DNA of 64,000 nucleotides from an uncultured Gammaproteobacteria bacterium. GTDB taxonomy: Bacteria; Patescibacteriota; Microgenomatia; UBA8517. The notes under the pieces were generated by a model, which saw only the letters and a program-made list of their open reading frames with translations, ran no database searches and was not told the DNA's origin. Below are positions 927 through 33,615 of the stretch, in pieces. The stretch's first letter is position 1. Every line of letters begins with the position of its first letter. Both the position numbers and the translations under genes were made by a program. The stretch covers positions 10,192 through 74,191 of the forward strand of contig CAZSXP010000002.1 of NCBI GenBank assembly GCA_964610395.1, given 5' to 3'.

Positions 927-1526
927 TTATCTTGCAATAGTTAGGCTTTTGATATTTTTAAACCCTGCTTCTGTTAAAACATTTTTTGCTTCGTTTATGG
1001 TTGAACCTGTGGTATAAACATCATCGAAGAGCAGTACAGAGAAATTAGTACTTAGTACAAAGTTGGGATTAACGGCAAAAACTCCAGAAAGATTTGAACG
1101 ACGAACAGAACCTTTTAATCCAACTTGAGGGATTGTATTTTTATTTCGAACCAACAAGTTCGAAGCATATTTCCAATTCATTGCTTTTGCTAATTTCTCC
1201 CCTATTATCTCTGTTTGATTAAATCCTCTCCAATTTTCTCTGTGTTTATGTAATGGTATTGGAACTAAAACAGCATTTAGAAATTGGTGATTAGCCTTTA
1301 ATCTTTGAATACAGGCGTCAACTAATTCATCTGCTAAATCATATGCAAATTTATATTTTAATGAAATTATTGCTTTTCTAATTACCTCCTCATATTTAAA
1401 AATTGCATAGTTTGAATTATCACACCTCGCGGGTGATACTTTTTTAAAACACTCGTCACATATATATCTTCCCTCTTTCCCACACTCCAAACATTTTTTA
1501 GGAAAGAGCAAATCCAAGAGATTCAT
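927..1526 (-). CDS. comFC: ComFC-like competence protein (N-terminal zinc ribbon plus phosphoribosyltransferase domain)
   Basis: N-terminal CxxC...CxxC (KKCLECGK...CDEC) and C-terminal PRT motif VLLFDDVYTTGSTI, the typical ComF architecture. Confidence 0.7.
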   Translation of the reverse strand: MNLLDLLFPKKCLECGKEGRYICDECFKKVSPARCDNSNYAIFKYEEVIRKAIISLKYKFAYDLADELVDACIQRLKANHQFLNAVLVPIPLHKHRENWRGFNQTEIIGEKLAKAMNWKYASNLLVRNKNTIPQVGLKGSVRRSNLSGVFAVNPNFVLSTNFSVLLFDDVYTTGSTINEAKNVLTEAGFKNIKSLTIAR

Positions 1527-1527
1527 A

Positions 1528-1977
1528 TTGTATAATCATAACTATATGAAAGTTTTTAATAAGAAAGCAAGTTTTGAATATGAATTAACCAGTGAAAGGA
1601 TAGAGGCTGGCTTGGTTTTAAAAGGAATTGAAGCTAAAGCCTTTAGAGATGGCAGGATAAATCTCTCTTCCGCCCATGTCAGAGTATTAGACGGCGAGAT
1701 ATATTTAATTAATGCAAACATCGCTGTTAATGACGTAAGGGGATATGAACCAACAAGAATGAGGAAATTACTTTTACATAAAAATGAAATACTTTCCATT
1801 ATTACCAAAATGAAACAGAAAAAGTTGCAAATTGTGCCCACCGTGATGTATAATTCTAGGTCTCGAATCAAACTAGAACTAGTTTTAGGAAAACCAAAAA
1901 GAAAGTTTGACAAGAAAGAAAGTATTAAAGCAAAAGATATCCAAAGAGATTTGGGTAGAGAATTAAAATGGGGATGA
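1528..1977 (+). CDS. smpB: SsrA-binding protein SmpB
   Basis: SmpB-like conserved blocks (KGIEAKAFRDGRINL, RKLLLHKNEI, C-terminal K/R-rich tail). Located immediately upstream of the tmRNA. Confidence 0.85.
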   Translation: MYNHNYMKVFNKKASFEYELTSERIEAGLVLKGIEAKAFRDGRINLSSAHVRVLDGEIYLINANIAVNDVRGYEPTRMRKLLLHKNEILSIITKMKQKKLQIVPTVMYNSRSRIKLELVLGKPKRKFDKKESIKAKDIQRDLGRELKWG

Positions 1978-2338
1978 CCGGTTTCGACGGATAGCTCTTT
2001 AACAAAACAGCAAGCCAAGTTTGATAAACACTTGTCAAAAGATATCAAAAACTAAAAGCAAACTCAAAAAGTTTTGCTCCTAGTTACCAATATGCTTTAG
2101 CATATTCATAACAGGCGTCCTGAGGTTTGATTCTCGATCGAACTGACTGGGTGTAAACCAATTCGAGATGCTACTTATTTTCTTTTGATTTAGAGGAAAT
2201 TTGTAAAAGATAATTAAATCTTACCTATAAATTCCTGTCGATTGGATAAACTTATGGGGAAATATTATTAATCGAATAAGCTTGTAGAAGTTTTGTTTTT
2301 AAGTTTTTCGGATGTGGGTTCGATTCCCACCATCTCCA
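1970..2338 (+). ncRNA. ssrA: tmRNA (ssrA)
   Basis: 5' end GGGGATGACCGGTTTCGACGG matches the conserved tmRNA 5' block. 3' end GGATGTGGGTTCGATTCCCACCATCTCCA is a tRNA-like T-arm/acceptor pairing with the 5' GGGGATG. Putative tag ORF starts at GCA about 89 nt in (ANSKSFAPSYQYALAYS then TAA). It directly follows smpB and overlaps its stop. Confidence 0.8.
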
Positions 2339-3845
2339 CATAATTAGTTTTTGAAGCTGTCGGGCTAGTAATTAGCCCGATAACAGGGTCTAAATCAGCG
2401 GTTCCAAATCCTGAGAGTTTGTCATAAATCAGTTTTCTTCCAAAATACATATTAAAGATTGTTCTTTTATCCTCTCCGTTATCACTTTTCCACAATACCA
2501 TGGGGTTTTTCAATGTTTCTAATACCAAATCTTTTGCGGTTCCAAACTCTGAATCGGAGTATTCCGACACCTTAATTTTCTCTAAACCTTCCTTTTCTAT
2601 AATCAGCTTTTTTATCTCCCCCTCATATACTGACACCAAATCATCAGACGTTTTGACTAGTCTCATTTTTAGCTTTTCCAATGACTTGTCTATTTCAACC
2701 AGCTTACTAGTGTTTGATTCACTAATCTCATTGCTAGAGGCTCTACGTTGCGTCCAGACGTCATCTAAGATAGCCTTAGCTAAATCCACAGCACCAACCA
2801 TAGGTTTACTTGCCGATAGTAAGTTTTTAAAATTTGTTTCGACATCGTTTGCATGGATTGATTTATATCGATAAGGACACCCTTTAGTTTTACACGTATA
2901 GTTAGCATAGTATTTACTTCTACCTTTGTTTCTGCTCCCAGTAAGAGGTTTTTCACATTTCGAGCATAAAATTAATTGGCGTAGTGGGAAATCTGGGTCA
3001 TAGTCTTTTCTGATACCGTATTTTTTATTTCCTGAAAGTCGTTCTTGAACCTTATCATACGTTTCAATTGAGACAAAACCCTCGTGATGACCTTTTCTTC
3101 GAGATACTCCCCAAGATTTAAATTCTATATAACCAGCATAAAGTATCTGAGTCAAGGTCAATCTTGCACCATTAAAAGATATTATTCTTTTAATTCCCAT
3201 TGATTCAAATTCATGATTAATGAATTGTTTAACATCATTAATTGTTGATAACGACCCATCCGCAAATGATTCAATTGCTTGTTTATATACTCCAGCATAG
3301 GGCTCATTGGAAACTAATAACTTACCATGAATAGGATTCCTTTCTGTTACAAGTGCTAATGGATGACCAAAAGACCAATAACCTTGTTCAAGCCTAGCTT
3401 TTTGCTTTTGAATTACTTGTTTCCTATTTTGATTCCTTTCCAGTTCAGCTTGTGCCGCAAGAACTGTTTCTACAAACTTACCCTCTGGAGTATCTTCAAA
3501 TTTAAAATTAGGGCTTTCTACGCTTCCATTTCTGCCATAGATTTCCTTTTTTAATTGAAAGTGTACTTGTGTATCTCTAGCGAAGCGTTTTAAATCATCA
3601 AAAACAACAATCGTATTTGTCGGTTCGTGAATATATTTCTCAAGTTCAGACAAAAGCTCTTTCATGGCTGGTCTCTCAAACAAACCGCCACTTTTGCCTT
3701 CGTCCCTAAATATACCTACGACTTTATATCCTTGTCCAATAGCATAGTCTCGACACCTCTTTTCTTGACTGTCCAATCCATGTCCTTCATTAACTTGTCT
3801 CTCAGAACTTACACGAGAATATATTAAGCATTTACGATTTTCCAT
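2268..3845 (-). CDS. large serine recombinase (integrase)
   Basis: N-terminal resolvase-type catalytic motif (LIYSRVSSERQ...GHGLDSQ), recombinase domain, zinc ribbon (CSKCEK...CKTKGC) and coiled-coil. The track ORF begins with a TTG at 3869; the first ATG (MENRKC) is at 3845. Its 3' end reads antisense through the tmRNA 3' end (GIEPT translation). Confidence 0.8.
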   Translation of the reverse strand: MENRKCLIYSRVSSERQVNEGHGLDSQEKRCRDYAIGQGYKVVGIFRDEGKSGGLFERPAMKELLSELEKYIHEPTNTIVVFDDLKRFARDTQVHFQLKKEIYGRNGSVESPNFKFEDTPEGKFVETVLAAQAELERNQNRKQVIQKQKARLEQGYWSFGHPLALVTERNPIHGKLLVSNEPYAGVYKQAIESFADGSLSTINDVKQFINHEFESMGIKRIISFNGARLTLTQILYAGYIEFKSWGVSRRKGHHEGFVSIETYDKVQERLSGNKKYGIRKDYDPDFPLRQLILCSKCEKPLTGSRNKGRSKYYANYTCKTKGCPYRYKSIHANDVETNFKNLLSASKPMVGAVDLAKAILDDVWTQRRASSNEISESNTSKLVEIDKSLEKLKMRLVKTSDDLVSVYEGEIKKLIIEKEGLEKIKVSEYSDSEFGTAKDLVLETLKNPMVLWKSDNGEDKRTIFNMYFGRKLIYDKLSGFGTADLDPVIGLITSPTASKTNYVEMVGIEPTSEKLKNKTSTSLFD

Positions 3846-3987
3846 ATTTTTCTTCAATTGTTTTACCAACTACTCTCTCACACAACCCATAAAGCTTAAT
3901 CAATATACTTTCGACCTCTTGGTCGTTTAGGTTGTCGTTTTTAAGCACTTTTCTCGCCTCTGCAACAGTGATTTTTCTTTGTACCAT
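3832..3987 (-). CDS. small ORF (51 aa) upstream of and overlapping the integrase start; possible HTH/RDF-like protein
   Basis: ATG...MVQRKITVAEARKVLK... read manually. Below the track length cutoff; overlaps the integrase start in another frame. Confidence 0.25.
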   Translation of the reverse strand: MVQRKITVAEARKVLKNDNLNDQEVESILIKLYGLCERVVGKTIEEKYGKS

Positions 3988-7338: not shown

Positions 7339-8691
7339 TTATTTGAGTTCTATGTACATGAGTTTTGGTCCGGTTAAAAGAATTATTTTGCCCTCTTCTT
7401 CTGAAACTACTATGTCTGTTGCATTTTTTATTTCATCGTTTAGATACTGAAGTTTAAATTCTCCACTTTTGTCTATAGCGACTACTCTTCCTTTTTCTTT
7501 TTCTAAAATATATACATTTTTTAATTTCTCATTTGTATAAATTGCGGTTGGATTTATAAATTGTTCACTTATTCCAGATAATGAAACAGTTTGTGGGTTT
7601 CCTAATGTAAACTTTGATACTTTTCCAGACGAAGAGAGAAGCCAAATTGATCCGTCAATTGAAACATCTTTAATTTTTGAAAAATCCACTTCAACTCCAG
7701 GAGCTAGCCATTCAGTTTTTTGGCCAAAAGTTTTGCCACTTCCTGACTGTCTAAATATTTGATTATTACTTTTATCAATTATGTAAATATTCCCAGCATA
7801 TACGTAAAACAGAGAATTTTCATCTATTTCATATACTCCATCAAGTTTATCTAAGAACAAAGTTCCTTCATATGAGGCTATTTTTTTTGTATCACCTATT
7901 TCTTCTTTGTTTGCTGCAATTTTTGCTCTTTTGGTTTTGATTCCTACATTTATAATATTTTTATTATCACTATCAAATATAAAAATATCTTCACCAGAAG
8001 AAACCATTTGACTTCCGTTAAAACCTGAAGTTTGTAATGTTAAATCCAAAAACTCTTTTACTTCCACTTTTACTTCTCCTACAATTTCTGCTTCTTTGTC
8101 TGATATATTTTTAGCAAGTTCATCTAGTTTTTCATTTTTAAATCCAGCTTTTTTTAATTCATCTGTTATATTTTTTGAACTTATAAATAATTCTCTTGCA
8201 CTGTTTTTGTCCACCACTCCTGTAATAGCTGATTCATAATTTGAAATGGCTTCATCTAGTTTAATTAAACTTTGTTTCTCAAAATCTCTATTATTTTTTT
8301 GTCTTACACCGAAGGTGACACTTACAATTAATAAAACTAAAAGAATTATTCCTACAGTAAGTGTTGTTTTTCTACTTTGTATGTTTGATTCATTTATTGG
8401 ATTATCTCTTACAAAAATTTCTTTTTGTTTATTTTCTCTTTCTTCTTCAATTGTCACTACTAATTTTTCTAAACCTTTTTCAATTGTATAAACATCTCCT
8501 ACTTGGGGAATTCCTGAAATTGAAGTTTTTTTATCTTGTGTTTCACAAAGTGTTACTGTTTTGTTATTTCGAAAAACAGTAGCTTTACAAAAAGGTTCTG
8601 TAGAAACAACTATTTTTTTAAAAAAGAAACGAATTGATCCCACACCTTCCAATTTTGGTTGACCTACATTTGATATTAATTTTAAGGACAT
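7339..8691 (-). CDS. hypothetical membrane-anchored protein with large extracytoplasmic domain
   Basis: Single TM (TVGIILLVLLIVSVTF) about 130 aa in, followed by about 320 aa of beta-rich sequence. The track start at 8712 overlaps the upstream gene; MSLKL at 8691 is likelier. Confidence 0.4.
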   Translation of the reverse strand: MSLKLISNVGQPKLEGVGSIRFFFKKIVVSTEPFCKATVFRNNKTVTLCETQDKKTSISGIPQVGDVYTIEKGLEKLVVTIEEERENKQKEIFVRDNPINESNIQSRKTTLTVGIILLVLLIVSVTFGVRQKNNRDFEKQSLIKLDEAISNYESAITGVVDKNSARELFISSKNITDELKKAGFKNEKLDELAKNISDKEAEIVGEVKVEVKEFLDLTLQTSGFNGSQMVSSGEDIFIFDSDNKNIINVGIKTKRAKIAANKEEIGDTKKIASYEGTLFLDKLDGVYEIDENSLFYVYAGNIYIIDKSNNQIFRQSGSGKTFGQKTEWLAPGVEVDFSKIKDVSIDGSIWLLSSSGKVSKFTLGNPQTVSLSGISEQFINPTAIYTNEKLKNVYILEKEKGRVVAIDKSGEFKLQYLNDEIKNATDIVVSEEEGKIILLTGPKLMYIELK

Positions 8692-8692
8692 T

Positions 8693-8905
8693 TTACAAAA
8701 TAATAATAGCAAAAACTAAGACTGCAATGGCAAACAGAAGATGTATGATTGATAATAATTTAAGTTGATTTTCAAAACCAACTTCTAATGTAGTTGTCAT
8801 TAATTGAACTTGACGAACAATAACAAAAGCAAAAATTATATATAAGACAAGTAGTATTAATATAAAAATTTTAATAACTGGCCAAATAGATAATGATAAA
8901 ATCAC
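8693..8905 (-). CDS. small membrane protein
   Basis: 70 aa, two hydrophobic helices. Confidence 0.3.
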   Translation of the reverse strand: MILSLSIWPVIKIFILILLVLYIIFAFVIVRQVQLMTTTLEVGFENQLKLLSIIHLLFAIAVLVFAIIIL

Positions 8906-9528
8906 CTTACTCTCCCCTCTATTGCTTCTTGTTGTTCTTCTGTTCGAAGGTCTTGTAAAACTTTTGCAACTTTGTCAGGATATGGAACTGCTAAAAAATC
9001 AAAATTGGGAACTTCGGAGGCTGTTTGGATCATTACATCACCATAATTGAAAAGTGTTCTTATTACCCCTCCCATTTTATAGGTAACATCTTGAATTTTA
9101 TCAATATTGGCGTCACTTACTTCTTTATAAATTAAATTATAAAAATCAATGTCAATTATTCTTTCGTCAGTAACTATATAAACATTAAAAAACCAAGTTA
9201 AAAAACTCTCTAATATGTAAGCTGTAGTTATTAAATACCAAATCATTATAAAGATAAATCTAAAATTAGAAGGTACTGATTCTAGAATTGACAAAGACAT
9301 CACAACAGTTGGAGTTAAAAGCATAATAAATCCTGTAAAAATCCAAGGGATGTTTGTAATAAAATGTTTTCTTAAAAAAAGAATTACTTTTTCTTCCTTT
9401 TCTCTTGTTTCAAAATTAATACCATGAGGAACCATTAAAAAAGAGGCAAGTGGATATCTTTCTTGCATCGGAAGATCTTTGTATAAAGCTTTCTTTCCTT
9501 TTTTAGAAGATACAAAAACATCTGGCAT
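8902..9528 (-). CDS. bacterial PH-domain (bPH_2/DUF304, YdbT-like) membrane protein
   Basis: Two TM helices followed by a YdbS/YdbT-like motif (IDKIQDVTYKMGGVIRTLFNYGDVMIQTA). Confidence 0.5.
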   Translation of the reverse strand: MPDVFVSSKKGKKALYKDLPMQERYPLASFLMVPHGINFETREKEEKVILFLRKHFITNIPWIFTGFIMLLTPTVVMSLSILESVPSNFRFIFIMIWYLITTAYILESFLTWFFNVYIVTDERIIDIDFYNLIYKEVSDANIDKIQDVTYKMGGVIRTLFNYGDVMIQTASEVPNFDFLAVPYPDKVAKVLQDLRTEEQQEAIEGRVR

Positions 9529-9545: not shown

Positions 9546-11234
9546 TCAAATCTTTTCGATGTTAAATAATGACGATTTAATACCAATATATCCAGGTGCT
9601 CTTAAATTAAATGCTTTTTTAAATTCATCTCCTGTCATGTTGACACTTCCTTTATTTGTTCCAAAACTTACGGATTGTGTTGTGCCGTTATTATTATAAA
9701 TAACTGACACAGACGAGACTGAGGTAAAACCACCAATCTCTGAGAGATCATTCATTGAATACGGATTTCCACCCCAACAAGATGTATCAACAGGAGAAAT
9801 TCTACTTACATCCCCTCCTCCTGAGGTTAAAACTTTCCAAGCATTTAAAATGTCAGCCAGTTCTTCTGATTTTAACCATGGATTTGATTTGCCACAGGTT
9901 GATCCTCCTCTTGATTTATACCATGCTTTATAAAACCATGGTGATCCACCAACTTTTTCGTATGCAGTTGAGGGCCAATCTCCTGATGTATCTCTAATTC
10001 CATTCCATCCCCACTGAGAGATTGTAAAACCACCAGAAGAAGCTGCATAATAGGTTTTTGCAAGTGCACCATCTTTTTTAAGAACCCATCCACGTGTTAC
10101 ACGTACAGCTTCTGCCCATTTACCAGATTTGAGTTGAGATTTATAAACCTGACAAGATTCAGTCGTGCAGATATTTCCTGCGCCATTATTTGTATAATTT
10201 AAAGCGTAAGTACGAGCCGCGACAGCCTGGGCCTTGAGGGCCTCAAAACCCCCATTATCGCCCCAGCTTTCAGGGACTTCATAAATACCTAATAGGTAAT
10301 TTTCCTCGAACGCTACACGTCCAATCCCCGTAACTCCAATTGTCGCTGGTACTGGGTATGATTTTTCTAAAGTTGAACCTTGATAGTATGCAGATAAAAT
10401 AGCTTCAGCGTTTTGTCCTGATTTACTTCTTCCGTATGCCCCATATTGACTCATTCCAGTTCTGTGTGGTGCCCCAAAAGAAAAAGCTGCAAAAGCTGGA
10501 GAAAACCCAGGATTACAAAAATTTGATGAGTTTGGAGGACCAGAACACGGCTCTAAAGTTCCAGGAGTATCTCCAACAGAAGTTGAAAAACCACCGGCTT
10601 TCAAGGCCTGTAAATTTTGTTGTTTTGAACTAAGTGTACTTAAATACCCCTCGACTTTGCTTACTTCTCCTGCCAAAAATTTTTCATTCTCAGCTACTTT
10701 TGATTTTAAAACTGCTAACGTTGATTTTGATTTTTCCAAATTTTCTTTGTCAGTTTTTAACTTTCCTAAATCATCTGCATATTTTTCCATTTGTTTACGG
10801 TCGCTGTCTGCAGCTTTTTGCCTAAAATTAACTTCTCGAAACGCAGAAGTTGCGTCATTTGATGCTATAAACGGCATAATTGGGTCGTATAATCTTAAAA
10901 AGATATAGCTACTTTTTGTTTTTTCTTCAAAAAGTATTTTTGCATATCCTAAGTCATCTTCTCTATCTTTAATATTTATTTCGTTTTTCTTTAATTGAAT
11001 AGACAAACTATCAATTTTTTTGTTTAAAGATGTAATTTGGTTTCGTAAATTATTAAGCTCAGTTTTGTTTTTTTCTTGAGCAGGAGATAACGCATCAATT
11101 TCTCTTTGAATTCCATCTATTTGACACTGAAGGTCAGATCCGCAGTCTTGTGCCTCTGCAACTGAATTAATAATTAAAAAATAAGAAATAAGAATTATAA
11201 ACAAAACAACAAATAATTTAATAACCTTAGACAT
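9546..11234 (-). CDS. SpoIID/LytB-domain protein with N-terminal coiled-coil
   Basis: Signal-anchor, long coiled-coil, then a SpoIID-type domain (ALKAQAVAARTYAL...NICTTESCQVYKS). Confidence 0.6.
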   Translation of the reverse strand: MSKVIKLFVVLFIILISYFLIINSVAEAQDCGSDLQCQIDGIQREIDALSPAQEKNKTELNNLRNQITSLNKKIDSLSIQLKKNEINIKDREDDLGYAKILFEEKTKSSYIFLRLYDPIMPFIASNDATSAFREVNFRQKAADSDRKQMEKYADDLGKLKTDKENLEKSKSTLAVLKSKVAENEKFLAGEVSKVEGYLSTLSSKQQNLQALKAGGFSTSVGDTPGTLEPCSGPPNSSNFCNPGFSPAFAAFSFGAPHRTGMSQYGAYGRSKSGQNAEAILSAYYQGSTLEKSYPVPATIGVTGIGRVAFEENYLLGIYEVPESWGDNGGFEALKAQAVAARTYALNYTNNGAGNICTTESCQVYKSQLKSGKWAEAVRVTRGWVLKKDGALAKTYYAASSGGFTISQWGWNGIRDTSGDWPSTAYEKVGGSPWFYKAWYKSRGGSTCGKSNPWLKSEELADILNAWKVLTSGGGDVSRISPVDTSCWGGNPYSMNDLSEIGGFTSVSSVSVIYNNNGTTQSVSFGTNKGSVNMTGDEFKKAFNLRAPGYIGIKSSLFNIEKI

Positions 11235-24125: not shown

Positions 24126-24160
24126 AAGACCACTCATTTTTAACTACTTTGAGTGGTCTT
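24126..24160 (-). terminator. rho-independent terminator downstream of the Zn-ribbon gene
   Basis: 10-bp stem AGACCACTCA/TGAGTGGTCT followed on the minus strand by a T-run. Confidence 0.5.
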
Positions 24161-24178
24161 TAGACTAACAGCAACTTA

Positions 24179-24517: not shown

Positions 24518-24677
24518 GGCACACCTCCTTAGTGTGTATTACATAAATTTTTACCGAGAAATGTCAAGTTGCAAGTGAATACTAACACAAAAAGGCAATT
24601 ACTTCAAGACTATAGGTATTTGGGGTTGGGGATTGACTTTTAGGGCAAAATAGATATACTAATAAGTACAAATTGCC

Positions 24678-25130
24678 TTAATTGGCACCCGAGAGCCCCG
24701 CAAGGGGCTCGTTTTTTGTCTCTTCTGTTGATATTAATTTTAATATCATTTTTTCTACTTCTCCAAACTGCTCTTTATTAAGATTCCCCATTTTTCTAAT
24801 CAATCGTTTTGAACTTAATATTCTAAGTTGTGACAGTATAACTGTTGACTTTCTATCTTTAAAATCAAAGGTAAAATAAAATTTTCCTTCTTTTACTTTT
24901 GAAGTTAGTGGAACACCCCAGAACATTCCTTTGTTAAACTTTCTAAAAATTAAAATTGGTCTTTCAAAATTTGTATTTTTTCCATCTATTTCATATCCGA
25001 CATTCACACCAACTGAACACCACCAAATTTCCTGTTCATGAAAAAACTTTTCTACACCCACACTATCAATCTGTGATTTTAATTTGTGCCAATTTTTGTA
25101 ATCTTTGACATACTTTGAAGCTTCTGTCAT
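24678..25130 (-). CDS. MazF/PemK-like toxin-family protein, copy 2
   Basis: Paralog of 20505..20951 (EIWWCSVGVNVGYEIDGKN..RPILIF...GVPLTSK...SQLRILSSKRL). C-terminal 12 codons are encoded by a hairpin. Confidence 0.5.
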   Translation of the reverse strand: MTEASKYVKDYKNWHKLKSQIDSVGVEKFFHEQEIWWCSVGVNVGYEIDGKNTNFERPILIFRKFNKGMFWGVPLTSKVKEGKFYFTFDFKDRKSTVILSQLRILSSKRLIRKMGNLNKEQFGEVEKMILKLISTEETKNEPLAGLSGAN

Positions 25131-25218
25131 GGTTGTATTTTACCTTAAATTAGTACAGAGAGAATGCATCACTTCGTGGGCAAAGTACCTAGTACTTAGT
25201 ATTGGTGGGATCAAAAAA

Positions 25219-25602
25219 CTATTCAAAATCTTTGATTTTAGCAAGAAGACTTTTGACAAGTGGGGGGAAATCTTTAATATCTTTATAAATTGACCTTACT
25301 TCGTCCTCTTTGTATGTATGTGTTGAAATATTTCTATGTTCTAAAAATTTAAACCAAACAACTGGATCATCTATTATCCCTATCCTTGCGGCTTCTCTAA
25401 TTACAGTTCTAATACCATAGGCGTCAACAACTTTATCTCTCAAAATAGCTTGCATAGTTTTCCATGACAGCTCAAAAGTAAATTCAAAGCGTTGGATTGT
25501 TGCGTCTTGGTTTATAATTTCTGGTGGTAACAACAATGCTTCGCCCAACCTTTCTACTGCCCTAGCTAAGTCTTTTATCAATTCTTGTGTTTTTTCCATC
25601 AA
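25219..25602 (-). CDS. hepT: HepT-like HEPN toxin (HI0074 nucleotidyltransferase substrate-binding family)
   Basis: HI0074-family pattern (...ATIQRFEFTFELSWKTMQ...) immediately downstream of the MntA-type NTase, overlapping by 4 nt. Confidence 0.55.
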   Translation of the reverse strand: MMEKTQELIKDLARAVERLGEALLLPPEIINQDATIQRFEFTFELSWKTMQAILRDKVVDAYGIRTVIREAARIGIIDDPVVWFKFLEHRNISTHTYKEDEVRSIYKDIKDFPPLVKSLLAKIKDFE

Positions 25603-25889
25603 TTTAAATAATAAACCTTTTTCATTGCAATTTCTTGAAATCTTTTAGATACTTTTGAGAAATCAACGACGTCAACCTTAAATGGTAAGTCAGAATTCTC
25701 AAATTCATCCTCCAGGTCAATTTTTGACATAATTGGAAGTTCTGATTTTGGTTCTACCCCTAAATCAATATCACTAAATTTCAAGTTATTCCCAATCGCT
25801 CGTGAGCCAAAAATAAATACCCTTGCACTTTTTGGATCAATATGTTTAAAAACAATCTTTTTAAATTCATCCAAATTAAAATCTGCCAT
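25599..25889 (-). CDS. mntA: MntA-like minimal nucleotidyltransferase antitoxin
   Basis: GSxxxG...SDIDL minimal NTase motif (IFGSRAIGNNLKFSDIDLGV). Confidence 0.6.
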   Translation of the reverse strand: MADFNLDEFKKIVFKHIDPKSARVFIFGSRAIGNNLKFSDIDLGVEPKSELPIMSKIDLEDEFENSDLPFKVDVVDFSKVSKRFQEIAMKKVYYLN

Positions 25890-25942
25890 AGTTGTATATT
25901 ACCTTAAATTAGTGCAGAGTACAAAGTACCTAGTACTTAGTA

Positions 25943-26269
25943 TTAGGAATAAGACAAAAATCTGATATCCAATCTACTATCCAAAGCCTCTGCAAGTTTT
26001 TGAAGGAAATTTACAGTTGGACTGATATTCCCCTTTTCTAATCTCGAAATTGCAGATTGAGTTGTACCTAGTTTTTTGGCAAGTTCTTTTTGAGAAAGAT
26101 CCTTCTTTCTTCTAACATCAATCATTGCCTGAAGCATTGCAAACTCAGGCTGTTGTCGTTCAAACTCTCTTCGTAAAGAAGAATTGTTTTTTAACACCCT
26201 TTTCTCCCAAACCAAGAAATCTTCATGTTGTCTTTTCTCAGGGGGAATATTTAAAACTTTTTTATTCAT
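25943..26269 (-). CDS. higA: HigA-like XRE-family HTH antitoxin
   Basis: HTH LSQKELAKKLGTTQSAISRLEKG, downstream of a HigB-like ORF. Confidence 0.6.
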   Translation of the reverse strand: MNKKVLNIPPEKRQHEDFLVWEKRVLKNNSSLRREFERQQPEFAMLQAMIDVRRKKDLSQKELAKKLGTTQSAISRLEKGNISPTVNFLQKLAEALDSRLDIRFLSYS

Positions 26270-26284
26270 ATATCGTATATGCTA

Positions 26285-26551
26285 TATTATTTCTTTTGCT
26301 CTGTCAATTGCTATTTTTAATTCTTTTGATGGAGTTTTTTGAGTTTTCTTTTTAAATACATGAAGCAAATAATAGGAATCTTTTACTTTTGTATAAAATA
26401 TTCGCAATGGATCTCTTCCTGTTACTCGCAATTCATATAAATTTTTGAATAGTTTTTTTGATTGTGGAGGTTTAAGAAATGGACCATTATCGATTAGTAA
26501 ATGTACTAATTTGTCAAAAATTATTTTTGTGAAAAGGATCCAATAGTTGCA
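26285..26551 (-). pseudogene. higB: HigB/RelE-family (Gp49-like) toxin ORF lacking any ATG/GTG/TTG start
   Basis: Manual translation ...FDKLVHLLIDNGPFLKPPQSKKLFKNLYELRVTGRDPLRIFYTKVKDSYYLLHVFKKKTQKTPSKELKIAIDRAKEII*. The open frame begins immediately after the stop of the upstream AbiEii gene. Confidence 0.45.
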
Positions 26552-27163
26552 CTAACCTAGTTTTACATTCTTCATAAAATATGTTTTTAAATCACCCCAA
26601 TTAAAATCTACTAACATATTTGGGTCTACATCATTTTCAGCATCATCGAAATAAATTAAGGACTTCTTTATCATTATTTCTCTTTCTTCAAAATTACCAA
26701 ACTTTTGATCATAGAATTTATATAAATTATCTAAACCAAATTTTTGAGCCAAGAAATAAATATCAACCAAATCACGTTTAGTACCTCGAGAGATTACGGT
26801 GTCTAGTTTTATGGCAGCCAAATCTCCAAGCGAGGCTAATTTTATATTTTCAAACGGTATTAAATCTTTTATGAGTGGATATTTATAGTAAAAAAGAGAA
26901 AACTTTATATTATTTATATCACCAATTATTGTTTGCCAATCCTTACTGAAAAGTTCTAAATTATAACTTTTCTCTAATTTTTGAATCCATTGATTTTCAT
27001 TAAACTCATGTTTTGTAAAAAAATCTAAATCTATAGATTTTCTGTGTCCAATTTGTAAAGATATTGCTGTGCCACCAGCTAAATATGTATCCAATGGCAG
27101 ACTATCATTATTAAATGAATTTAATAATTTGTGAGTTTCCTCAAGAATTGTATTAGTATACAT
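26552..27163 (-). CDS. AbiEii/AbiGii-family nucleotidyltransferase toxin
   Basis: LAGGTAISLQIGHRKSIDLDFF motif typical of AbiEii/DUF1814. Confidence 0.6.
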   Translation of the reverse strand: MYTNTILEETHKLLNSFNNDSLPLDTYLAGGTAISLQIGHRKSIDLDFFTKHEFNENQWIQKLEKSYNLELFSKDWQTIIGDINNIKFSLFYYKYPLIKDLIPFENIKLASLGDLAAIKLDTVISRGTKRDLVDIYFLAQKFGLDNLYKFYDQKFGNFEEREIMIKKSLIYFDDAENDVDPNMLVDFNWGDLKTYFMKNVKLG

Positions 27164-27459: not shown

Positions 27460-28494
27460 ATGGAACAACATCCAATACCACAACAAATAAGCTCATATCA
27501 ATTTAAATTGGTTGGGGATATGACATTAAAGCAATTTTTTCAAGTTGCAGGTGGTGTAATTGTTTCTTTAATTTTTTATTCCACCTCTTTGCATCCTTTG
27601 ATTAAATGGCCAATTATATTGTTTTCTGCAGGACTGGGCGCAGCTATGGCATTTTTACCTTTTGAAGAAAGACCTCTTGAAAAATGGATCATTGCCTTTT
27701 TTAGAAGTATTTATTCACCAACTTTATTTTCTTGGAAAAAAACAGACAAGCCACCTGTTTTTTACACAGAAAATGCACCAGCACCAGAAGTAAAGCTTGT
27801 TCAAACTGGTCCAACAGTTGAAAAAAATACAGAAAAATTAGAAGCGGCAGAAAAATCATTTTTACAAAAAATTGGGGGATTATTTAACAATAACCAACCA
27901 TCAACAATCAATAATCAAAGCGTAAACAAAACATCAACACCGATTGAACAACAAGTTATACCTACTACTTTTACGACGCATGTATCTTCTGTCCCAGTTA
28001 AAGATCAACAGCCAGCAATTAATAACAATTCTGCCCCTCTTTCTGTGCCTCAACAAATACCAACTGTAATTACTAAATCAGCACCACGTATAGTTGTTGA
28101 AGAATCTACCCCAATATCCCAACAACAGCCTCTAACTACCAAAATTGAGACCCAGAAAATTGAAGAGGAACCAATAACCACAAATTCTGTTGAATTTTCA
28201 GTTGATGCAGCACCACCATCTCCCCCTCTTGGACCAAACACTATTGTTGGTCAAGTAATGGATCAAGACAGAAAAATTATAGAAGGAGCTATACTTGAAA
28301 TTAAAGACTCGTCAAGTAGACCTGTTAGGGCTTTAAAAAGTAATAAAGCAGGACATTTTATAATAGTTACACCACTTTCTAATGGTAAATATGAAGTTAC
28401 TATTGAAAAAGATGGATTTGTGTTTGAACCTGTATCTTTTGAGGCAAAGGGAGAAATGATTCCACCAATAGCAATTAAAGGAACAAAAATATGA
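27460..28494 (+). CDS. PrgI/VirB3-like two-TM N-domain, Pro/Gln/Thr-rich linker, C-terminal carboxypeptidase-regulatory-like beta domain
   Basis: Two N-terminal TM helices (MTLKQFFQVAGGVIVSLIFY...IILFSAGLGAAMAFLPF), low-complexity linker, C-terminal GQVMDQDRKIIEGAILEIKD...GKYEVTIEKDGF. Directly upstream of the VirB4-like genes. Confidence 0.4.
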   Translation: MEQHPIPQQISSYQFKLVGDMTLKQFFQVAGGVIVSLIFYSTSLHPLIKWPIILFSAGLGAAMAFLPFEERPLEKWIIAFFRSIYSPTLFSWKKTDKPPVFYTENAPAPEVKLVQTGPTVEKNTEKLEAAEKSFLQKIGGLFNNNQPSTINNQSVNKTSTPIEQQVIPTTFTTHVSSVPVKDQQPAINNNSAPLSVPQQIPTVITKSAPRIVVEESTPISQQQPLTTKIETQKIEEEPITTNSVEFSVDAAPPSPPLGPNTIVGQVMDQDRKIIEGAILEIKDSSSRPVRALKSNKAGHFIIVTPLSNGKYEVTIEKDGFVFEPVSFEAKGEMIPPIAIKGTKI

Positions 28495-29195
28495 ATGATT
28501 ATAAATTGAAATTCAGCTCCGCTATAAAAATTAAAAATTTTGTATCAAAAATTCCTTACTTTGGTACACCTGATGTTCCTTTAACCTCTACAACACAAAA
28601 CGCTCTTCCAATTGCAGATATTGTTGACGATGTTGTTTTATACAAGGATGGGGGAGCAGCAATTGTCCTTGAAACTTCATCATTAAACTTTGGTCTTCTC
28701 TCTGAAAAAGAACAGGGTGCTGTTGTTGCAGCATATGCTGCGCTTATTAATTCTTTGTCTTTTTCAATTCAAATTATGGTTAAAACACAAAGAAAAGATA
28801 TTACTGGTTATATTAAATTCTTTGACGAAGCAAGCAAAAAAATAACTAATCCAAAACTAGCTGCAATTACTGATGATTACAGACATTTTATAACTGAATC
28901 AATCAAGAAAAAGACTGTTTTAGGGAAAAGATTTTTCATAGTTATTCCTTTTAATCAACTTGAACTTGGCGTAGCAAAGTCAGCCCAATCTATAATTAAA
29001 AGGGGGCCTCTTCCTTTTCCTAAAGATTATGTTGTTAAAAAAGCAAAGGTTACTCTTTTCCCCAAAAGGGATCATCTAATAAGACAGGCGGGTCGACTTG
29101 GTTTAAAATTAAAACAATTAAGTACACAACAATTAATTAATCTCTATTACGAAGTAAATAATCCTGAGCCACCAGCAGTAAAGAAAGACATATGA
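28491..29195 (+). CDS. hypothetical T4SS-associated protein, possibly the split-off N-terminal domain of VirB4
   Basis: Soluble 234 aa overlapping the VirB4-like ATPase start by 4 nt (ATGA). The ATPase ORF is shorter than typical VirB4. Confidence 0.3.
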   Translation: MNDYKLKFSSAIKIKNFVSKIPYFGTPDVPLTSTTQNALPIADIVDDVVLYKDGGAAIVLETSSLNFGLLSEKEQGAVVAAYAALINSLSFSIQIMVKTQRKDITGYIKFFDEASKKITNPKLAAITDDYRHFITESIKKKTVLGKRFFIVIPFNQLELGVAKSAQSIIKRGPLPFPKDYVVKKAKVTLFPKRDHLIRQAGRLGLKLKQLSTQQLINLYYEVNNPEPPAVKKDI

Positions 29196-30976
29196 CAAAC
29201 AATAAACCAATAATTACCAATCCAAACTTGTCTATCTCAAGTGGAGAAATGCTATTACATGATGCTATTGCGTCAGATAACATTGAAATTGATTTTGATT
29301 TTATCAAAGTAAATAATGTTTATTTTAGAACTATCTTTGTAGCAGGATATCCAAGGTTTGTTGCACCTGGATGGTTAGAATCCGTTGTTAATTTCAATTC
29401 ATCTCTTGATATGAGTTTTTATATATATCCAGTTGCAGGAAAATCTGTTCTTGATGATCTCAGACGTAAAATCGCAGAAATGGAGGCAGAACTTTCAACT
29501 GATATTCAAAGGGGTAAGATTGTTGATCCTGTAACCACTGCCAAACTTGAAGACGCGAGATCTCTACAAGAACAACTTGTTAAAGGAATTGAAAGATATT
29601 ATGAATTTTCATTCTACATTACAATCCCAGCCAATTCTTTAGATGAATTAAATAACATCACAAGACAAATACAGTCAACACTTGGCTCACTTTTAATCGT
29701 TGCAAAAAATGCATCGCTTGATCAAAAGGAAGGATTTTTGTCAACTGCTCCATATGGTAGAGACAGCCTTTCAATTACAAGAAACATGGACACAACCTCA
29801 GTGGCTACAACTTTTCCATTTACATCAGCAGAACTTTCTTCAGATACTGGTGTCTTGTATGGAATAAATTCACAAAACGAATCTTTTATTATTTTTGACA
29901 GATTCTCTTTGGAAAATGCAAACTTCACTATATTCGCCACTTCTGGAGCTGGTAAAAGTTACTTTGTTAAAACTGAAGCGGTTAGATCTTTGATGATCGG
30001 CACAGAAGTTATCATCCTAGACCCTGAAGCAGAATATAAAGCCCTTTGTGACGCTGTTGGCGGTCAGTATATATCTTTCTCGTATAATAGCCCTGCAAAA
30101 ATCAATCCATTTGATTTAGCCCAAATTAGAGAAGAAGGGGAGAACCAATTAGGTCTTAAGATTTTATCGCTTCATGCATTAATGAAAGTCATCATGGGAC
30201 AAATTAGCCCAACACAAGAAGCCATGCTTGATAGGGCACTTATCTTAACTTACAAAGCAAAGGGAATTACAAACGACCCAACAACCCAAACAAAAGAACC
30301 ACCTTTAATGGAAGATCTTTATAAAACATTGATTGGAATGGAAGTTCCTGAAGCACTTGATCTTGCGGCTCGTATTGAAAAATTTATCAGAGGTTCTTTC
30401 CAAGGAATATTTGACAAACAAACAAATGTTGACCTTAATAATCCATTTACAGTTTTTTCTGTTAAAGATATTCAGGATGCAATCCGTCCTATTGTCATGT
30501 TTATGATTCTTGACTACATTTGGACAAGGGTTAAAAGAGATATTAAAAGAAGAATATTAATTGTTGAGGAAGCATGGCAAATGATGAAATATCCAGACAC
30601 TGCTCAGTTTTTATGGTCTGTCGTTAAGAGAGCAAGGAAATACTATCTAGGACTTACTACAATCACTCAGGACGTTGAAGACTTCCTAAGTCAAGACATC
30701 GGGAAGGCAATTGTTACAAACTCTGCTTTACGGTTGCTTTTGAAACAATCTCCAACCGCCATAGATAAATTAGGAGAGATATTTTATTTATCGCAAGGGG
30801 AGAAGCAACTTCTAATGGCTGCAAATGTAGGAGAGGGAATTTTCTTTGCAGGACCACACCATGCACCAATTAGGATTGTTGCCTCAGAAAAAGAACATGC
30901 TTTGATTAATACCAAACCACAAGACAATCCAGCACCAACAATGCCAAACACTAAGGCGTGGAATAGACAGGATTAA
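29192..30976 (+). CDS. virB4: VirB4/TrbE/CagE-family type IV secretion ATPase
   Basis: Walker A FATSGAGKSYFVKTEAV, Walker B RILIVEEAWQMM, downstream GLTTITQDVEDF; overall VirB4 C-terminal ATPase-domain layout. Confidence 0.7.
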   Translation: MTNNKPIITNPNLSISSGEMLLHDAIASDNIEIDFDFIKVNNVYFRTIFVAGYPRFVAPGWLESVVNFNSSLDMSFYIYPVAGKSVLDDLRRKIAEMEAELSTDIQRGKIVDPVTTAKLEDARSLQEQLVKGIERYYEFSFYITIPANSLDELNNITRQIQSTLGSLLIVAKNASLDQKEGFLSTAPYGRDSLSITRNMDTTSVATTFPFTSAELSSDTGVLYGINSQNESFIIFDRFSLENANFTIFATSGAGKSYFVKTEAVRSLMIGTEVIILDPEAEYKALCDAVGGQYISFSYNSPAKINPFDLAQIREEGENQLGLKILSLHALMKVIMGQISPTQEAMLDRALILTYKAKGITNDPTTQTKEPPLMEDLYKTLIGMEVPEALDLAARIEKFIRGSFQGIFDKQTNVDLNNPFTVFSVKDIQDAIRPIVMFMILDYIWTRVKRDIKRRILIVEEAWQMMKYPDTAQFLWSVVKRARKYYLGLTTITQDVEDFLSQDIGKAIVTNSALRLLLKQSPTAIDKLGEIFYLSQGEKQLLMAANVGEGIFFAGPHHAPIRIVASEKEHALINTKPQDNPAPTMPNTKAWNRQD

Positions 30977-30978
30977 TT

Positions 30979-33615
30979 ATGAATCTCGATATAATCGTCT
31001 CACTTCAAACGGATTTTGGAAAAATATATGATGAAAATTTCAAGTTAAAAGACAAAACAAGATTAGCTGATTTTAATAAAGAGCTAGAAGAAGTTGGAAT
31101 TTCTTCAAAATTAACACCAAAAGAAATTGAATTAAAACTTCAACAAATCCATGAGTTATTAGAAAAAAAACAAGAACCTCTCACAAAAACAACATTAAAC
31201 AAAGATGAATCTGAACAATTTATAAAAGAAGCAGAACAAAGAGAAGCAAATATAAAAGAAACAAGGGAGGGTCAAACAAAAGCAGTAGAGGATTTTATAA
31301 AAAGAAATCAGGAACAAGTTTCAAAAGCCCAAGCGGTTCAAGAAAAACTAAAAGATAAAGTTGTTTATGCAAAAGTAATTATTCCAGATATACCTCCTTT
31401 AAACGAAACAGAGCAAAAAGATTTAGAAATTTTAAAAGAATTTGCACAAGGAGACGAAGTTACTAGAACAAAATTAATTGATGATTTGGCTACAAAAATA
31501 GAATCCAAATTAGAAAATGTTCCTGAAGAACAAAAAACATTAATCTCAAGAACTGCAGCCGTTGAAATAGTAGAAAAATTGGCAAAACCAGAAGTTGTAA
31601 TTGAAACTCAAGTCCAAACTGCAATTTTAAGAGCTGTTTCAGAAGATAAAACAGGCGTACTTCCGAAAGTTTTAAATCAAGATGATAATTTATTACTTAC
31701 TGCAAAAAGAGGGTCAACCCTTCTTGAATTAGAAAATAGAAATTCTGAATATTTAAGTAAAAATATAGCAAAAAATATTTTTGGGTCTAAACTTACCGCT
31801 TCAATATATGGCACTGAACAAATTCAAATCATTTTAAGTGAAACAAAAATTGAAGGGCAGACTACTCATCAAATTAATTTAGGAGACTTAAACCAAAATC
31901 AAATTCAAGTTTTAAATCATCAAAATGAATTATTAAATTCTGCACAACAATTTGGGGTTAATAAAATTGAAGGATTTTTTACGAATCAATCAAGAGTGTA
32001 TCTTGCAGAAAAAATTGCAAAGTTGCCTGCAGGTAGTGTAGTCAAAAAAACATATTCATCACCAATTACTCAAACAATTTTAGCAAGATATGGATTAGCT
32101 CAGCCGGTGGTCTGGGAAACGGTGGGGCAAACAGGTTTTGTCAAATTAGCAATGCAAATTGCTCCAGATACTGCTGGGCCAATGTTAAGTCTAGCTGGAA
32201 AAGCATTAGGAAAAGAATTTGTAAAACCAGTTGTTGGAAAAGTCGCAACACAAATTGCAGTAAAAACAGGTTTTGGTGCGACAATAACAACAGCACTTTC
32301 AAGTTTAGGTGCGGCGGCTGGACCAGTAGGTCTTGCCATAACAACAGCTATTGTGGCCGCAATTACGGCAGTGGGGAAGATGATTAACTGGCCAAAGATT
32401 AAGCAGTGGTTTATTGATAATAAAGAAGTATTTGTTGGACTAGGAGCTGGTGCAGGTTTATTAATCGGTGGACCAGTTGCAGGTTTAGTTACAGGGGGTT
32501 TACTTATGGCAGCAACAGGAACGCTTGGAGCTTTTGCGATGGGAGCTTTTGGAGTTTTTGGTTTTATAGGTAGATCAATAGGGATTGCAATTGCAACACC
32601 TGTAATTATTACCCTTTTAGTTCTCCCCCCACTTGTTGCTTTTATAATGCTTGTAATAAATAACAGTGCATATGTTGTTCCACCTTTTTCATCATCTTCA
32701 TTGACAGGGGCAGACAATCCTTATTTGTTAGTTACCAAAACGGCAGAGCCTAATAAAATTAGTAACCCAACTTCAAAAACAACAGTGACATACACTGTTT
32801 CAATTAAAGCTCTTAAGGCAGCACTAACAAATATTAAGCTTGTTTCCACAGAATGCACTGTTACTTCAAAAACTAAAACTGCTGTCTGTCCTCCTGAAAA
32901 CATTCCTGAATTACCTGCTGATTTATCAATTTCACCAACTAATCCATACGCTTTTACTTTTACGGTTAATTATAGTTCGTTTTATGCGGATTCATTGGTT
33001 TATGATTCAATTGAGATTAGTGCGGATTCAACAGAAAAAACCGGAATTACAACATCAGGATCAGCAACTCTTTGTATAGGTGATTGTCCTACAGATTGTG
33101 CAAAAGTATCAGATAACGCACAAAAATGGCCAAGTAATTTAAAATCAAATTCTGAAAACGCACTCGGTAAACTTTCTTCAAAATATCAAGGTTTTATGGC
33201 AAAAGTTTGTGCAAAAAATGAAGAGATAAATCTTTGTTATAACCCTCCACAAATTTCTCCTGGCTACTTTGCTTGGCATATCCATAATGCACAGGGTAAT
33301 AAATGTGATATTTATTTTAATGAGAAGGGTTTAAAGAGTGACAAGGATGCATTATTTTTAATAACACATGAATTAACACACCATATACAAAATATTAATA
33401 GTGGAAGCGTTGAACAATATGATAACACAGGTGCTTGGTCTGAAATATCATCAAGAGGTTTTTGTACATATTCCGATACAAAAGGAAGCATAACCGAATC
33501 TATGGCTGAAGCAAACGGTTTATATGCATCAGTTCCTTCTTGGGGTTCGTGTGCGTCAAATTATAAAAATTTATATCCTAAAAACTATATGTTTGCTAAG
33601 AAATTTATGGAATAA
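30979..33615 (+). CDS. large tripartite membrane protein: coiled-coil N-domain, Gly-zipper polytopic core, C-terminal Cys-rich extracellular HExxH (zincin-like) domain
   Basis: Residues 1-420 charged/coiled-coil; about 420-640 GxxxG-rich TM helices; C-terminal FLITHELTHHIQN with downstream E/D. Translationally coupled to virB4. Confidence 0.45.
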   Translation: MNLDIIVSLQTDFGKIYDENFKLKDKTRLADFNKELEEVGISSKLTPKEIELKLQQIHELLEKKQEPLTKTTLNKDESEQFIKEAEQREANIKETREGQTKAVEDFIKRNQEQVSKAQAVQEKLKDKVVYAKVIIPDIPPLNETEQKDLEILKEFAQGDEVTRTKLIDDLATKIESKLENVPEEQKTLISRTAAVEIVEKLAKPEVVIETQVQTAILRAVSEDKTGVLPKVLNQDDNLLLTAKRGSTLLELENRNSEYLSKNIAKNIFGSKLTASIYGTEQIQIILSETKIEGQTTHQINLGDLNQNQIQVLNHQNELLNSAQQFGVNKIEGFFTNQSRVYLAEKIAKLPAGSVVKKTYSSPITQTILARYGLAQPVVWETVGQTGFVKLAMQIAPDTAGPMLSLAGKALGKEFVKPVVGKVATQIAVKTGFGATITTALSSLGAAAGPVGLAITTAIVAAITAVGKMINWPKIKQWFIDNKEVFVGLGAGAGLLIGGPVAGLVTGGLLMAATGTLGAFAMGAFGVFGFIGRSIGIAIATPVIITLLVLPPLVAFIMLVINNSAYVVPPFSSSSLTGADNPYLLVTKTAEPNKISNPTSKTTVTYTVSIKALKAALTNIKLVSTECTVTSKTKTAVCPPENIPELPADLSISPTNPYAFTFTVNYSSFYADSLVYDSIEISADSTEKTGITTSGSATLCIGDCPTDCAKVSDNAQKWPSNLKSNSENALGKLSSKYQGFMAKVCAKNEEINLCYNPPQISPGYFAWHIHNAQGNKCDIYFNEKGLKSDKDALFLITHELTHHIQNINSGSVEQYDNTGAWSEISSRGFCTYSDTKGSITESMAEANGLYASVPSWGSCASNYKNLYPKNYMFAKKFME

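Follow-up and report, generated by a model that had tools for sequence, protein, structure and literature searches.

Introduction

In the epibiotic Saccharibacterium S. epibionticum, a type IV secretion system (T4SS) cluster with a series of pilin genes (SEML1_0006-0019) is essential for epibiotic growth, and the system is most like Gram-positive conjugative systems but has no coupling protein or relaxase that can be recognised (Wang et al., 2023, Cell; PMC10633639). The comEC, comF and dprA genes are dispensable for growth of this organism, and deletion of comEC alone abolishes its transformation (PMC10633639). A survey of 3035 genomes placed the VirB4 ATPases of Patescibacteria in a monophyletic clade nested in the MPF_FATA class, with TrsD adjoining virB4, PrgI/VirB3 present and dnaA/dnaN nearby (Quinonero-Coronel et al., 2025, Microb Genom; PMC12102498). 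The VirB2 pilin arrays of these systems, which are found especially in Microgenomatia and Saccharimonadia, comprise 2-11 genes with a mean identity of 25% and a maximum of 54%, and homologues of VirB6 and VirB1 were scarcely detectable in Microgenomatia (PMC12102498). The patescibacterial systems have been counted as a new T4SS type in a 2025 review (PMC12857230), and a 2024 perspective pointed to ComB of Helicobacter as a precedent for the uptake of nucleotides or DNA (PMC11665869). The present analysis concerns the T4SS genes in a 64,000-nucleotide (nt) stretch of contig CAZSXP010000002.1, referred to throughout as the window, which a first-pass annotation had described as a candidate ComB-like apparatus for DNA uptake or epibiotic contact that is dispersed among natural-competence genes near oriC.

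ComB of Helicobacter pylori is a chromosomal T4SS subset without relaxase or type IV coupling protein (T4CP) that includes VirB2-, VirB3-, VirB4- and VirB6-like parts. As a diderm system it also has VirB8 and a VirB7/9/10 core, and it co-exists with ComEC, DprA, ComF and ComM. Pilins, VirB3, VirB4, VirB6 and wall hydrolases make up the pilus-building subset of T4SSs in model systems. The window genes are interpreted here as a chromosomal, vertically inherited patescibacterial system of Woesebacteria/Microgenomatia-like type that is derived from Gram-positive MPF_FATA conjugation machinery, an explanation that is given as a whole a probability of roughly 0.6. Its identity as a patescibacterial T4SS is, taken separately, very probable.

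Results

Composition of the cluster and identity of the VirB4 ATPase

Open reading frames (ORFs) of the window, including every ORF of at least 400 amino acids (aa), were scanned for domains. Relatives were collected by scanning species-representative genomes with the family of the 555-aa protein described below, which yielded 80 loci, each with flanks of up to 10 kb on either side (denoted by L numbers); the window proteins were mapped onto these by tblastn, and the 50 loci with full ±10 kb flanks are termed full loci. The T4SS genes and the replication genes beside them are as follows, where TM denotes transmembrane.

9546-11234, minus strand: SpoIID/LytB-domain protein with an N-terminal anchor and a coiled coil, divergent to the pilin array
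11275-14065, plus strand: eight tandem genes for VirB2-like T4SS pilins of 92-125 aa
11275-11634, 11635-11958, 11961-12281 and 12284-12634, plus strand: pilin genes 1-4
12631-12993, 12990-13367, 13381-13737 and 13787-14065, plus strand: pilin genes 5-8
14062-16602, plus strand: 846-aa signal-anchored protein, the start of which overlaps the last pilin stop (ATGA)
20982-22649, plus strand: 555-aa polytopic membrane protein, candidate divergent VirB6/PrgH-type channel subunit
27460-28494, plus strand: extended PrgI/VirB3-like protein, the N-terminal PrgI domain of which has two TM helices
28491-29195, plus strand: TrsD-like protein of 234 aa, equivalent to the VirB4 N-terminal domain, with ATGA overlaps with the PrgI and VirB4 genes on either side
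29192-30976, plus strand: VirB4-type ATPase of 594 aa (C-terminal two-thirds), MPF_FATA / CD1110 type
30979-33615, plus strand: 878-aa membrane protein starting 3 bp past VirB4, with a ~440-aa cytoplasmic coiled-coil region, about 5-6 TM helices and an extracellular C-terminal region
33623-34216, plus strand: 197-aa protein with one TM helix and no Pfam match, downstream of the 878-aa gene
34213-36975, minus strand: dnaN and dnaA (Pfam DNA_pol3_beta, three domains; Bac_DnaA; Bac_DnaA_C)

The VirB4-type ATPase scored 371 bits against NCBIfam conju_CD1110 (cut-off 325), with a match only to profile positions 184-734 of 752, and carried the Pfam TraG P-loop domain (E=9e-35). Its best solved relative was the Thermoanaerobacter VirB4 (PDB 4AG5; E=3e-46). 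Against TIGR00929 VirB4_CagE, the subfamily which we take to include ComB4, the protein reached 118 bits, far under the 643-bit cut-off, and the score with NCBIfam CedB of the archaeal importer was 44 bits compared to a cut-off of 700. Homologues fall into more than 8000 clusters, of which the best 120 are 79-95% identical to the window protein and bear source names that are nearly all Patescibacteria, Microgenomates or Woesebacteria, and the best plasmid relatives are 28-38% identical and all come from monoderms (Bacillota or Actinomycetota). By family-profile scores and nearest relatives, rather than by a formal tree, the ATPase is assigned to the Gram-positive conjugative CD1110 class. The first-pass annotation had considered a ComB4-type VirB4 and had named affinity with Gram-positive conjugative proteins in advance as the contrary outcome; it is this affinity that was found at the family level. 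Membership of the Helicobacter ComB group was rejected on the VirB4_CagE score and on the lack of VirB8, VirB9 and VirB10 domains in any scanned ORF, and the archaeal Ced importer was rejected on the CedB score.

The TrsD-like ORF showed weak matches to NCBIfam VirB4_plasma of mycoplasma (positions 103-233; E=1e-6) and to TrsD (E=5e-5), the latter at 23 bits against a 200-bit cut-off, and the VirB4 N-terminal domain was not found when the TrsD family profile was searched against the PDB. The TrsD and VirB4 ORFs are fused in frame in three of 61 loci, producing proteins of 822-914 aa (L034 16840-19449, L056 16259-19003 and L077 17160-19628), and are separate genes in the remaining 58. As fusions exist in a few relatives and separate ORFs elsewhere, the split VirB4 ATPase (28491-30976) of the earlier annotation is real and is the usual state in the lineage. 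The assignment of a PrgI/VirB3-like protein at 27460 also was upheld by a score of 28.3 bits with Pfam PrgI (cut-off 27), and the C-terminus of this protein matched a CarboxypepD_reg-like beta-sandwich (E=3e-7). The protein is approximately three times the usual length of PrgI/VirB3, as the PrgI domain is followed by a long low-complexity Q/P/T-rich linker and then by the beta-sandwich. Among 61 loci, L077 encodes a shorter form of 259 aa, and the lengths in the other 60 fall within 320-406 aa.

The pilin-like subunits proved to be encoded by exactly eight tandem genes. Seven matched Pfam T4SS_pilin PF18895, and the eighth (12284-12634) was recognised at E=3e-10 by a hidden Markov model (HMM) built from the other seven; the same pilin HMM detected no further pilins at E<=10 in a six-frame translation of the window. 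Two hydrophobic helices flank a conserved SGGD..K/A loop in these proteins, the pairwise identity of which averages 25.5% with a maximum of 44%. The product of the divergent gene at 9546-11234 scored 112 bits with NCBIfam SpoIID_LytB (cut-off 83) and is possibly an additional wall-remodelling enzyme.

Conservation of the cluster in related genomes

The common gene order runs from SpoIID (minus strand) through eight pilins and the 846-aa and 555-aa genes and, after a gap, through PrgI, TrsD, VirB4 and the 878-aa gene to dnaN and dnaA (both minus strand). Around the 555-aa gene, 49 of the 50 full loci keep the T4SS genes together. The pilin array was found in all 50, mostly with 8 genes, and the 846-aa, PrgI, TrsD and VirB4 genes were each present in 49. 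The SpoIID gene lies upstream of the pilin array in 39 full loci, the 878-aa gene was found in 37 (in most of the others the flank may stop too early), and dnaN follows the T4SS cluster in 15 in which the flank extends far enough. The GC content is 29-36% in the window and is uniform across the T4SS region. This uniformity, together with the near-universal retention of the pilin, 846-aa, PrgI, TrsD and VirB4 genes, argues for vertical inheritance. In most related species the T4SS is a single cluster of roughly 20 kb beside dnaN-dnaA. The minimum of the cumulative GC skew lies at ~28-30 kb, which fits a replication origin near dnaA, and the location near oriC that had been proposed for the gene list is substantiated both by the skew and by the adjoining dnaN and dnaA genes.

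Competence genes and the two interruptions of the cluster

The cluster in the window is broken at two points, and the genes concerned, together with comFC, are as follows. PRT denotes phosphoribosyltransferase and wHTH a winged helix-turn-helix.

927-1526, minus strand: comFC, with a double zinc ribbon and a PRT domain, outside the T4SS cluster
16603-19265, minus strand: dprA-yraN-comM operon, between the 846-aa gene and the VirB6-like gene
19358-20338, plus strand: wHTH and PRT (ComF-like) protein
20505-20951, plus strand: MazF-like toxin (Pfam PemK)
22671-27163, minus strand: variable segment from the VirB6-like gene to PrgI, in which Pfam and ORF analysis placed a 469-aa unknown, a 112-aa Cys-rich protein, MazF, a HEPN/MNT-type pair, an HTH protein and an AbiEii-like toxin
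22671-24080, minus strand: the 469-aa ORF of the variable segment

The competence-type genes reported by the first-pass annotation were all confirmed by Pfam and NCBIfam: comFC matched the full ComF profile (positions 1-190 of 190; E=2.7e-28) as well as Pfam DZR_2 and Pribosyltran, the dprA-yraN-comM products matched DNA_processg_A (205 bits), UPF0102 (86 bits) and Mg_chelatase (309 bits), and the PRT-domain regulator matched Pfam Pribosyltran and PRTase-CE and NCBIfam ComF (E=1.5e-6). However, their interleaving with the T4SS genes, which had been offered as an argument for a shared function, is a property of this genome that most relatives do not possess. The dprA, yraN and comM genes each occur in only five of the 50 full loci, the wHTH-PRT gene in four and mazF in one. 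The five loci with dprA-yraN-comM all belong to the ten nearest relatives, and their VirB4 proteins share 84% identity or more with that of the window. The close relatives L004, L076 and L064 are without the insertion, and the genes that would flank it are 146 bp apart in L004 and 47 bp apart in L076. The dprA-yraN-comM operon is a recent opposite-strand insertion into an otherwise contiguous T4SS cluster, and the wHTH-PRT gene and mazF belong to the same inserted segment. As the insertion is confined to a few near relatives, the competence linkage is derived and local and is not a conserved partnership; the adjacency is probably incidental. The lineage-specific character of the dprA-comM adjacency is the new result of this analysis.

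The mazF gene at 20505-20951 is bracketed by 51-nt direct repeats (20415-20465 and 20909-20959) that are 75% identical and share their last 17 nt, CGTGGCTAACGCCAATT, which suggests acquisition of the toxin gene as a small cassette or through recombination. The second interruption corresponds to a 555-aa-to-PrgI gap that measures about 1.8-6 kb in relatives, is variable in every one of them and holds fast-evolving genes. The 469-aa gene was found in two of the 50 full loci. In many Woesebacteria a large minus-strand ORF lies between the VirB6-like gene and PrgI (L004 11624-14134), in which no TM helix is apparent by eye. This ORF evolves very fast, being detectable in 16 of the 80 loci at ~21-39% identity, and the 469-aa ORF of the window is unrelated to it, though situated in the same place and orientation. 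The variable ORF could be a cargo, effector or immunity gene. A 38-nt sequence occurs three times in the variable segment of the window (24073-24110, 25123-25160 and 25882-25919), with 71-89% identity to the 25123-25160 copy. The copies lie over the start codons and leaders of three minus-strand genes, namely the 469-aa ORF, MazF and the nucleotidyltransferase, and the repeat may be a shared promoter/leader cassette.

Candidate wall hydrolases and channel subunits

The C-terminal ~230 aa of the 846-aa protein were predicted from structure to have a lysozyme-like / lytic-transglycosylase (SLT-like) fold, no function was assigned to the N-terminal ~600 aa, and a single-sequence PDB search gave no match. 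With a predicted lysozyme-like domain inside the T4SS cluster, the protein is a candidate for the VirB1-like wall hydrolase that had been proposed. The 555-aa product of 20982-22649 is polytopic, in agreement with the first-pass annotation; its VirB6 identity is a lead from fold comparison to which no sequence match corresponds. The top fold matches of the model, which are weak, are DotA and TrwI/VirB6. Pfam and NCBIfam searches with the protein and 30 homologues revealed no match to VirB6, TrbL or PrgH even at E<=1, hhalign of the family against pCF10 PrgH gave a probability of 0.1%, and a profile search of the family against the PDB did not recover TrwI. The protein therefore is put forward as a candidate divergent VirB6-like subunit. 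In L015, the closest relative, identity to the window is 95% for VirB4, 93% for TrsD, 78% for PrgI and 72% for the 846-aa protein, but only 41% for the 555-aa protein. This discordance suggests diversifying selection or allelic replacement of a membrane/surface subunit.

The large membrane protein described at 30979-33615 was verified, with about 5-6 TM helices. Its family has 27 members, comprising 26 orthologues and the window protein. A Pfam wall-hydrolase domain forms the C-terminus in 14 of the 26 orthologues (M23 in 10, CHAP in two, Amidase_2 in one and NlpC/P60 in one), and an HExxH module is present in 10 of the 27 members, including the window protein in which it ends the extracellular C-terminal region. 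The C-terminal module (33100-33615 in the window; orthologues L002-L076) thus is swapped among Peptidase_M23, CHAP, Amidase_2, NlpC/P60 and HExxH types, the last of which weakly matches a Pfam eCIS_core/DUF4157-like domain (E=0.067). No similarity to PrgK was detectable by hhalign of the 878-aa family (probability 2.7%), and a single-sequence PDB search gave no match. The analogy with PrgK consequently draws on position, size and the hydrolase modules of the orthologues, by which the protein is likely to be a PrgK-like wall-hydrolase subunit. A homologue of the 197-aa protein follows the 878-aa gene in nine of the 80 loci, at times on the opposite strand; its position offers a lead to a counterpart of pCF10 PrgL, which is VirB8-like.

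Relaxase, coupling protein and VirB11

No relaxase, T4CP (VirD4/TcpA-type) or VirB11 domains were detected in the scanned ORFs of the window, in accord with the earlier annotation. Moreover, no relaxase or T4CP was found in the 1.42 Mb of DNA flanking the 80 related loci, and no homologues of the pCF10 relaxase and T4CP were found in the window or in these loci. An att-like repeat of the tmRNA 3' end, sought as the sign of an island that includes the T4SS, was not present in the window. An integrative conjugative element (ICE) was rejected because synteny is conserved, alongside the failure to find a relaxase, T4CP or att repeat in the window. In line with the first-pass annotation, the T4SS set is unlikely to be a conjugation module.

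Comparison with known systems

Judged from its sequence, by VirB4, TrsD, PrgI, the pilins, the lack of a relaxase and its position, the cluster appears to be a member of the Patescibacteria-clade T4SSs derived from MPF_FATA. It resembles these in VirB4 type, a separate TrsD, PrgI/VirB3, a divergent pilin array (~25% identity), wall hydrolases downstream of virB4, the absence of a nearby relaxase or T4CP and the dnaA/dnaN genes beside it. It differs in being broken by dprA-yraN-comM and by a toxin-antitoxin segment, and in the long linker and C-terminal beta-sandwich of PrgI. Whereas VirB6 and VirB1 were scarce in the published Microgenomatia, the 555-aa, 846-aa SLT-domain and 878-aa hydrolase-module proteins are proposed here as candidates.

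In pCF10 of Enterococcus faecalis, the MPF_FATA prototype, prgH-I-J-K-L is collinear with the window order of polytopic protein, PrgI, VirB4, ~870-aa hydrolase and single-TM protein. PrgK has 871 aa and the 878-aa window protein occupies the same position, and PrgJ is 25% identical to the window VirB4 (E=7e-35). In contrast, no sequence similarity to PrgH, PrgK or PrgL was detectable, VirB4 is one gene in pCF10 and two in the window, and pCF10 has the T4CP PcfC, the relaxase PcfG and adhesins but no pilins, whereas the window has eight pilins and none of those three. The Trs system of pGO1 type in Staphylococcus similarly has a separate TrsD, homologous to the VirB4 N-terminus, before a VirB4-like ATPase (TrsE), but pGO1 is plasmid-borne and conjugative and the TrsD match in the window is weak. 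With ComB the window shares a chromosomal subset that lacks relaxase and T4CP and has VirB2-, VirB3-, VirB4- and VirB6-like parts; it differs in that no VirB7/9/10 core or VirB8 was found and in that its VirB4 is of the CD1110 family.

Other features of the window

The remaining annotated features are listed below.

First in the layout: two tRNA-Ser genes
1970-2339, plus strand: tmRNA gene (ssrA)
2268-3869, minus strand: serine recombinase of 533 aa
4000-7300: small genes of unknown type in a lower-GC stretch (about 0.30) after the serine recombinase
7339-8712 and 8902-9528, minus strand: two conserved unknown genes
Beyond dnaA: housekeeping genes including rnpA, yidC, leuS, tsaD, groES/EL and others
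54514-55683, minus strand: 389-aa ORF with a LAGLIDADG domain, right after groEL

The serine recombinase ORF covers the last 72 nt of the tmRNA gene. The recombinase and the lower-GC small genes look like an island integrated in ssrA, and a further copy of the tmRNA 3' end was not found in the 64-kb window. The 389-aa ORF has multiple HTH matches in addition to its LAGLIDADG homing-endonuclease domain and may be a free-standing homing endonuclease. Many public records of metagenome-assembled genomes with a Woesebacteria-type cluster (L002, L006, L007, L009, L011 and others) are titled 'uncultured Gammaproteobacteria bacterium', and one is titled 'Alphaproteobacteria'; these titles are probably taxonomic mislabels.

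Discussion

The presence of the pilus-building subset, and the absence of a T4CP and relaxase, favour a pilus or short-conduit machine for host contact. By analogy with model systems, the VirB4/TrsD ATPase would supply energy and extract pilins from the membrane, PrgI would dock VirB4/TrsD to the membrane, and the pilins would polymerise on a platform formed by the VirB6-like 555-aa protein. The SLT domain and the exchangeable peptidase/amidase modules would open the cell's own wall, and the outcome would be a pilus or short conduit that touches the bacterial host of the cell. The divergent pilins, the fast-evolving 555-aa protein and the swapped hydrolase modules fit a surface structure adapted to particular hosts, and the host-contact alternative of the first-pass annotation agrees with the essentiality of the T4SS and its pilins in an epibiotic Saccharibacterium (PMC10633639). 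Nevertheless, this mechanism is held only tentatively, at slightly less than even odds. Several points weigh against the interpretation offered here. No VirB8-like or VirB5-like subunit was identified among the window genes, and the VirB6 assignment combines weak fold matches with gene position, sequence-level tests having failed. Synteny that is kept within one class can come from shared ancestry and not from function. No patescibacterial T4SS has had its function demonstrated, Woesebacteria have not been brought into culture, and no pilus of this system has been observed. Most patescibacterial genomes are reported to have T4CP-like genes elsewhere, and T4SS loci of the ABY1 class adjoin comF, recG and radA, so that a link with genes for DNA uptake and recombination recurs in a second lineage (PMC12102498).

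The VirB4, PrgI and TrsD families derive from conjugative plasmids and ICEs, a serine recombinase is situated at the tmRNA gene about 7 kb upstream, and T4CP-like genes are common elsewhere in patescibacterial genomes (PMC12102498), all of which would suit a mating-pair-formation module with its relaxase and T4CP located elsewhere or unrecognised. Yet the same chromosomal context, from SpoIID to dnaN-dnaA, recurs in 49 of 50 species, the GC content is uniform, and conserved chromosomal neighbours separate the recombinase (2268-3869) from the cluster, with no repeat of the tmRNA 3' end. As relaxases also were found in only 103 of 3035 patescibacterial genomes (PMC12102498), and homologues of the pCF10 relaxase and T4CP in neither the window nor the 80 loci, a conjugative element is highly improbable. 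Delivery of proteins, either toxins or factors that manipulate the host, into the host bacterium by a contact-dependent translocator, comparable to bacteria-killing or Streptococcus suis T4SSs, is unlikely but less remote. The T4SS is essential for epibiotic growth (PMC10633639), effector delivery has been speculated on in the literature (PMC11665869), and Ptl and Brucella VirB export proteins without a T4CP (PMC12102498); moreover, the large, fast-evolving, TM-less protein inside the cluster of many relatives, replaced here by the 469-aa ORF, could be the cargo. Against this, in most loci the variable gene has no detectable homology to that of the window, neither an effector nor a secretion signal nor a coupling protein was recognised, and no experimental evidence exists.

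A ComB-like importer that brings in DNA or nucleotides from the host or the environment and passes them to ComFC, DprA and ComM was the reading favoured by the first-pass annotation. The idea is already in print, on the grounds that Patescibacteria are unable to synthesise nucleotides and that growth requires the T4SS but not ComEC (PMC11665869). The failure to find a relaxase or T4CP in the window, the location of comFC, dprA-yraN-comM and the ComF-like PRT gene within ~20 kb of T4SS genes, and the ABY1-class loci beside comF, recG and radA (PMC12102498) are in its favour. The chance of at least two competence loci lying this close is ~2%, a rough and post hoc estimate that assumes about 6 independent competence loci, a genome of ~0.8 Mb and a 33-kb span. 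However, the linkage is kept in only five of 50 related species, dprA and comM sit on the opposite strand as an insertion, the VirB4 is of CD1110 type (371 bits) and not of VirB4_CagE (118 bits) or CedB (44 bits) type, and the VirB7, VirB9 and VirB10 core was not found. Furthermore, these bacteria are monoderm and possess both type IV pili and ComEC, and loss of comEC by itself ended transformation in S. epibionticum (PMC10633639). An importer of this kind is improbable, and the ComB analogy gained no support from the window. Equally improbable is a T4SS that runs in reverse, in which a pilus-tipped conduit would import host DNA, nucleotides or other macromolecules into the epibiont and DNA-processing genes would be drawn alongside it because both act jointly, as dprA/comM in the window subclade and comF/recG/radA in ABY1.

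The chromosomal, vertically inherited patescibacterial T4SS favoured here has been published already, including the pilin arrays, TrsD, the missing relaxase and the dnaA position, and its novelty is low; with the ComB proposal of 2024, both the observation and the preferred interpretation of the first-pass annotation were in the literature. The window, therefore, leaves the existing picture of the patescibacterial T4SS unchanged, the system and its odd features having been described previously, and the competence-gene adjacency is not to be read as functional evidence. For Microgenomatia, the gain is one of annotation, in the form of candidates for a VirB6-like channel, for a VirB1 analogue with an SLT domain and for a PrgK-like protein whose hydrolase modules are swappable. 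Few machines besides this T4SS are known to be indispensable to the epibiotic way of life in Patescibacteria, a group that is very large and for the most part uncultivated.

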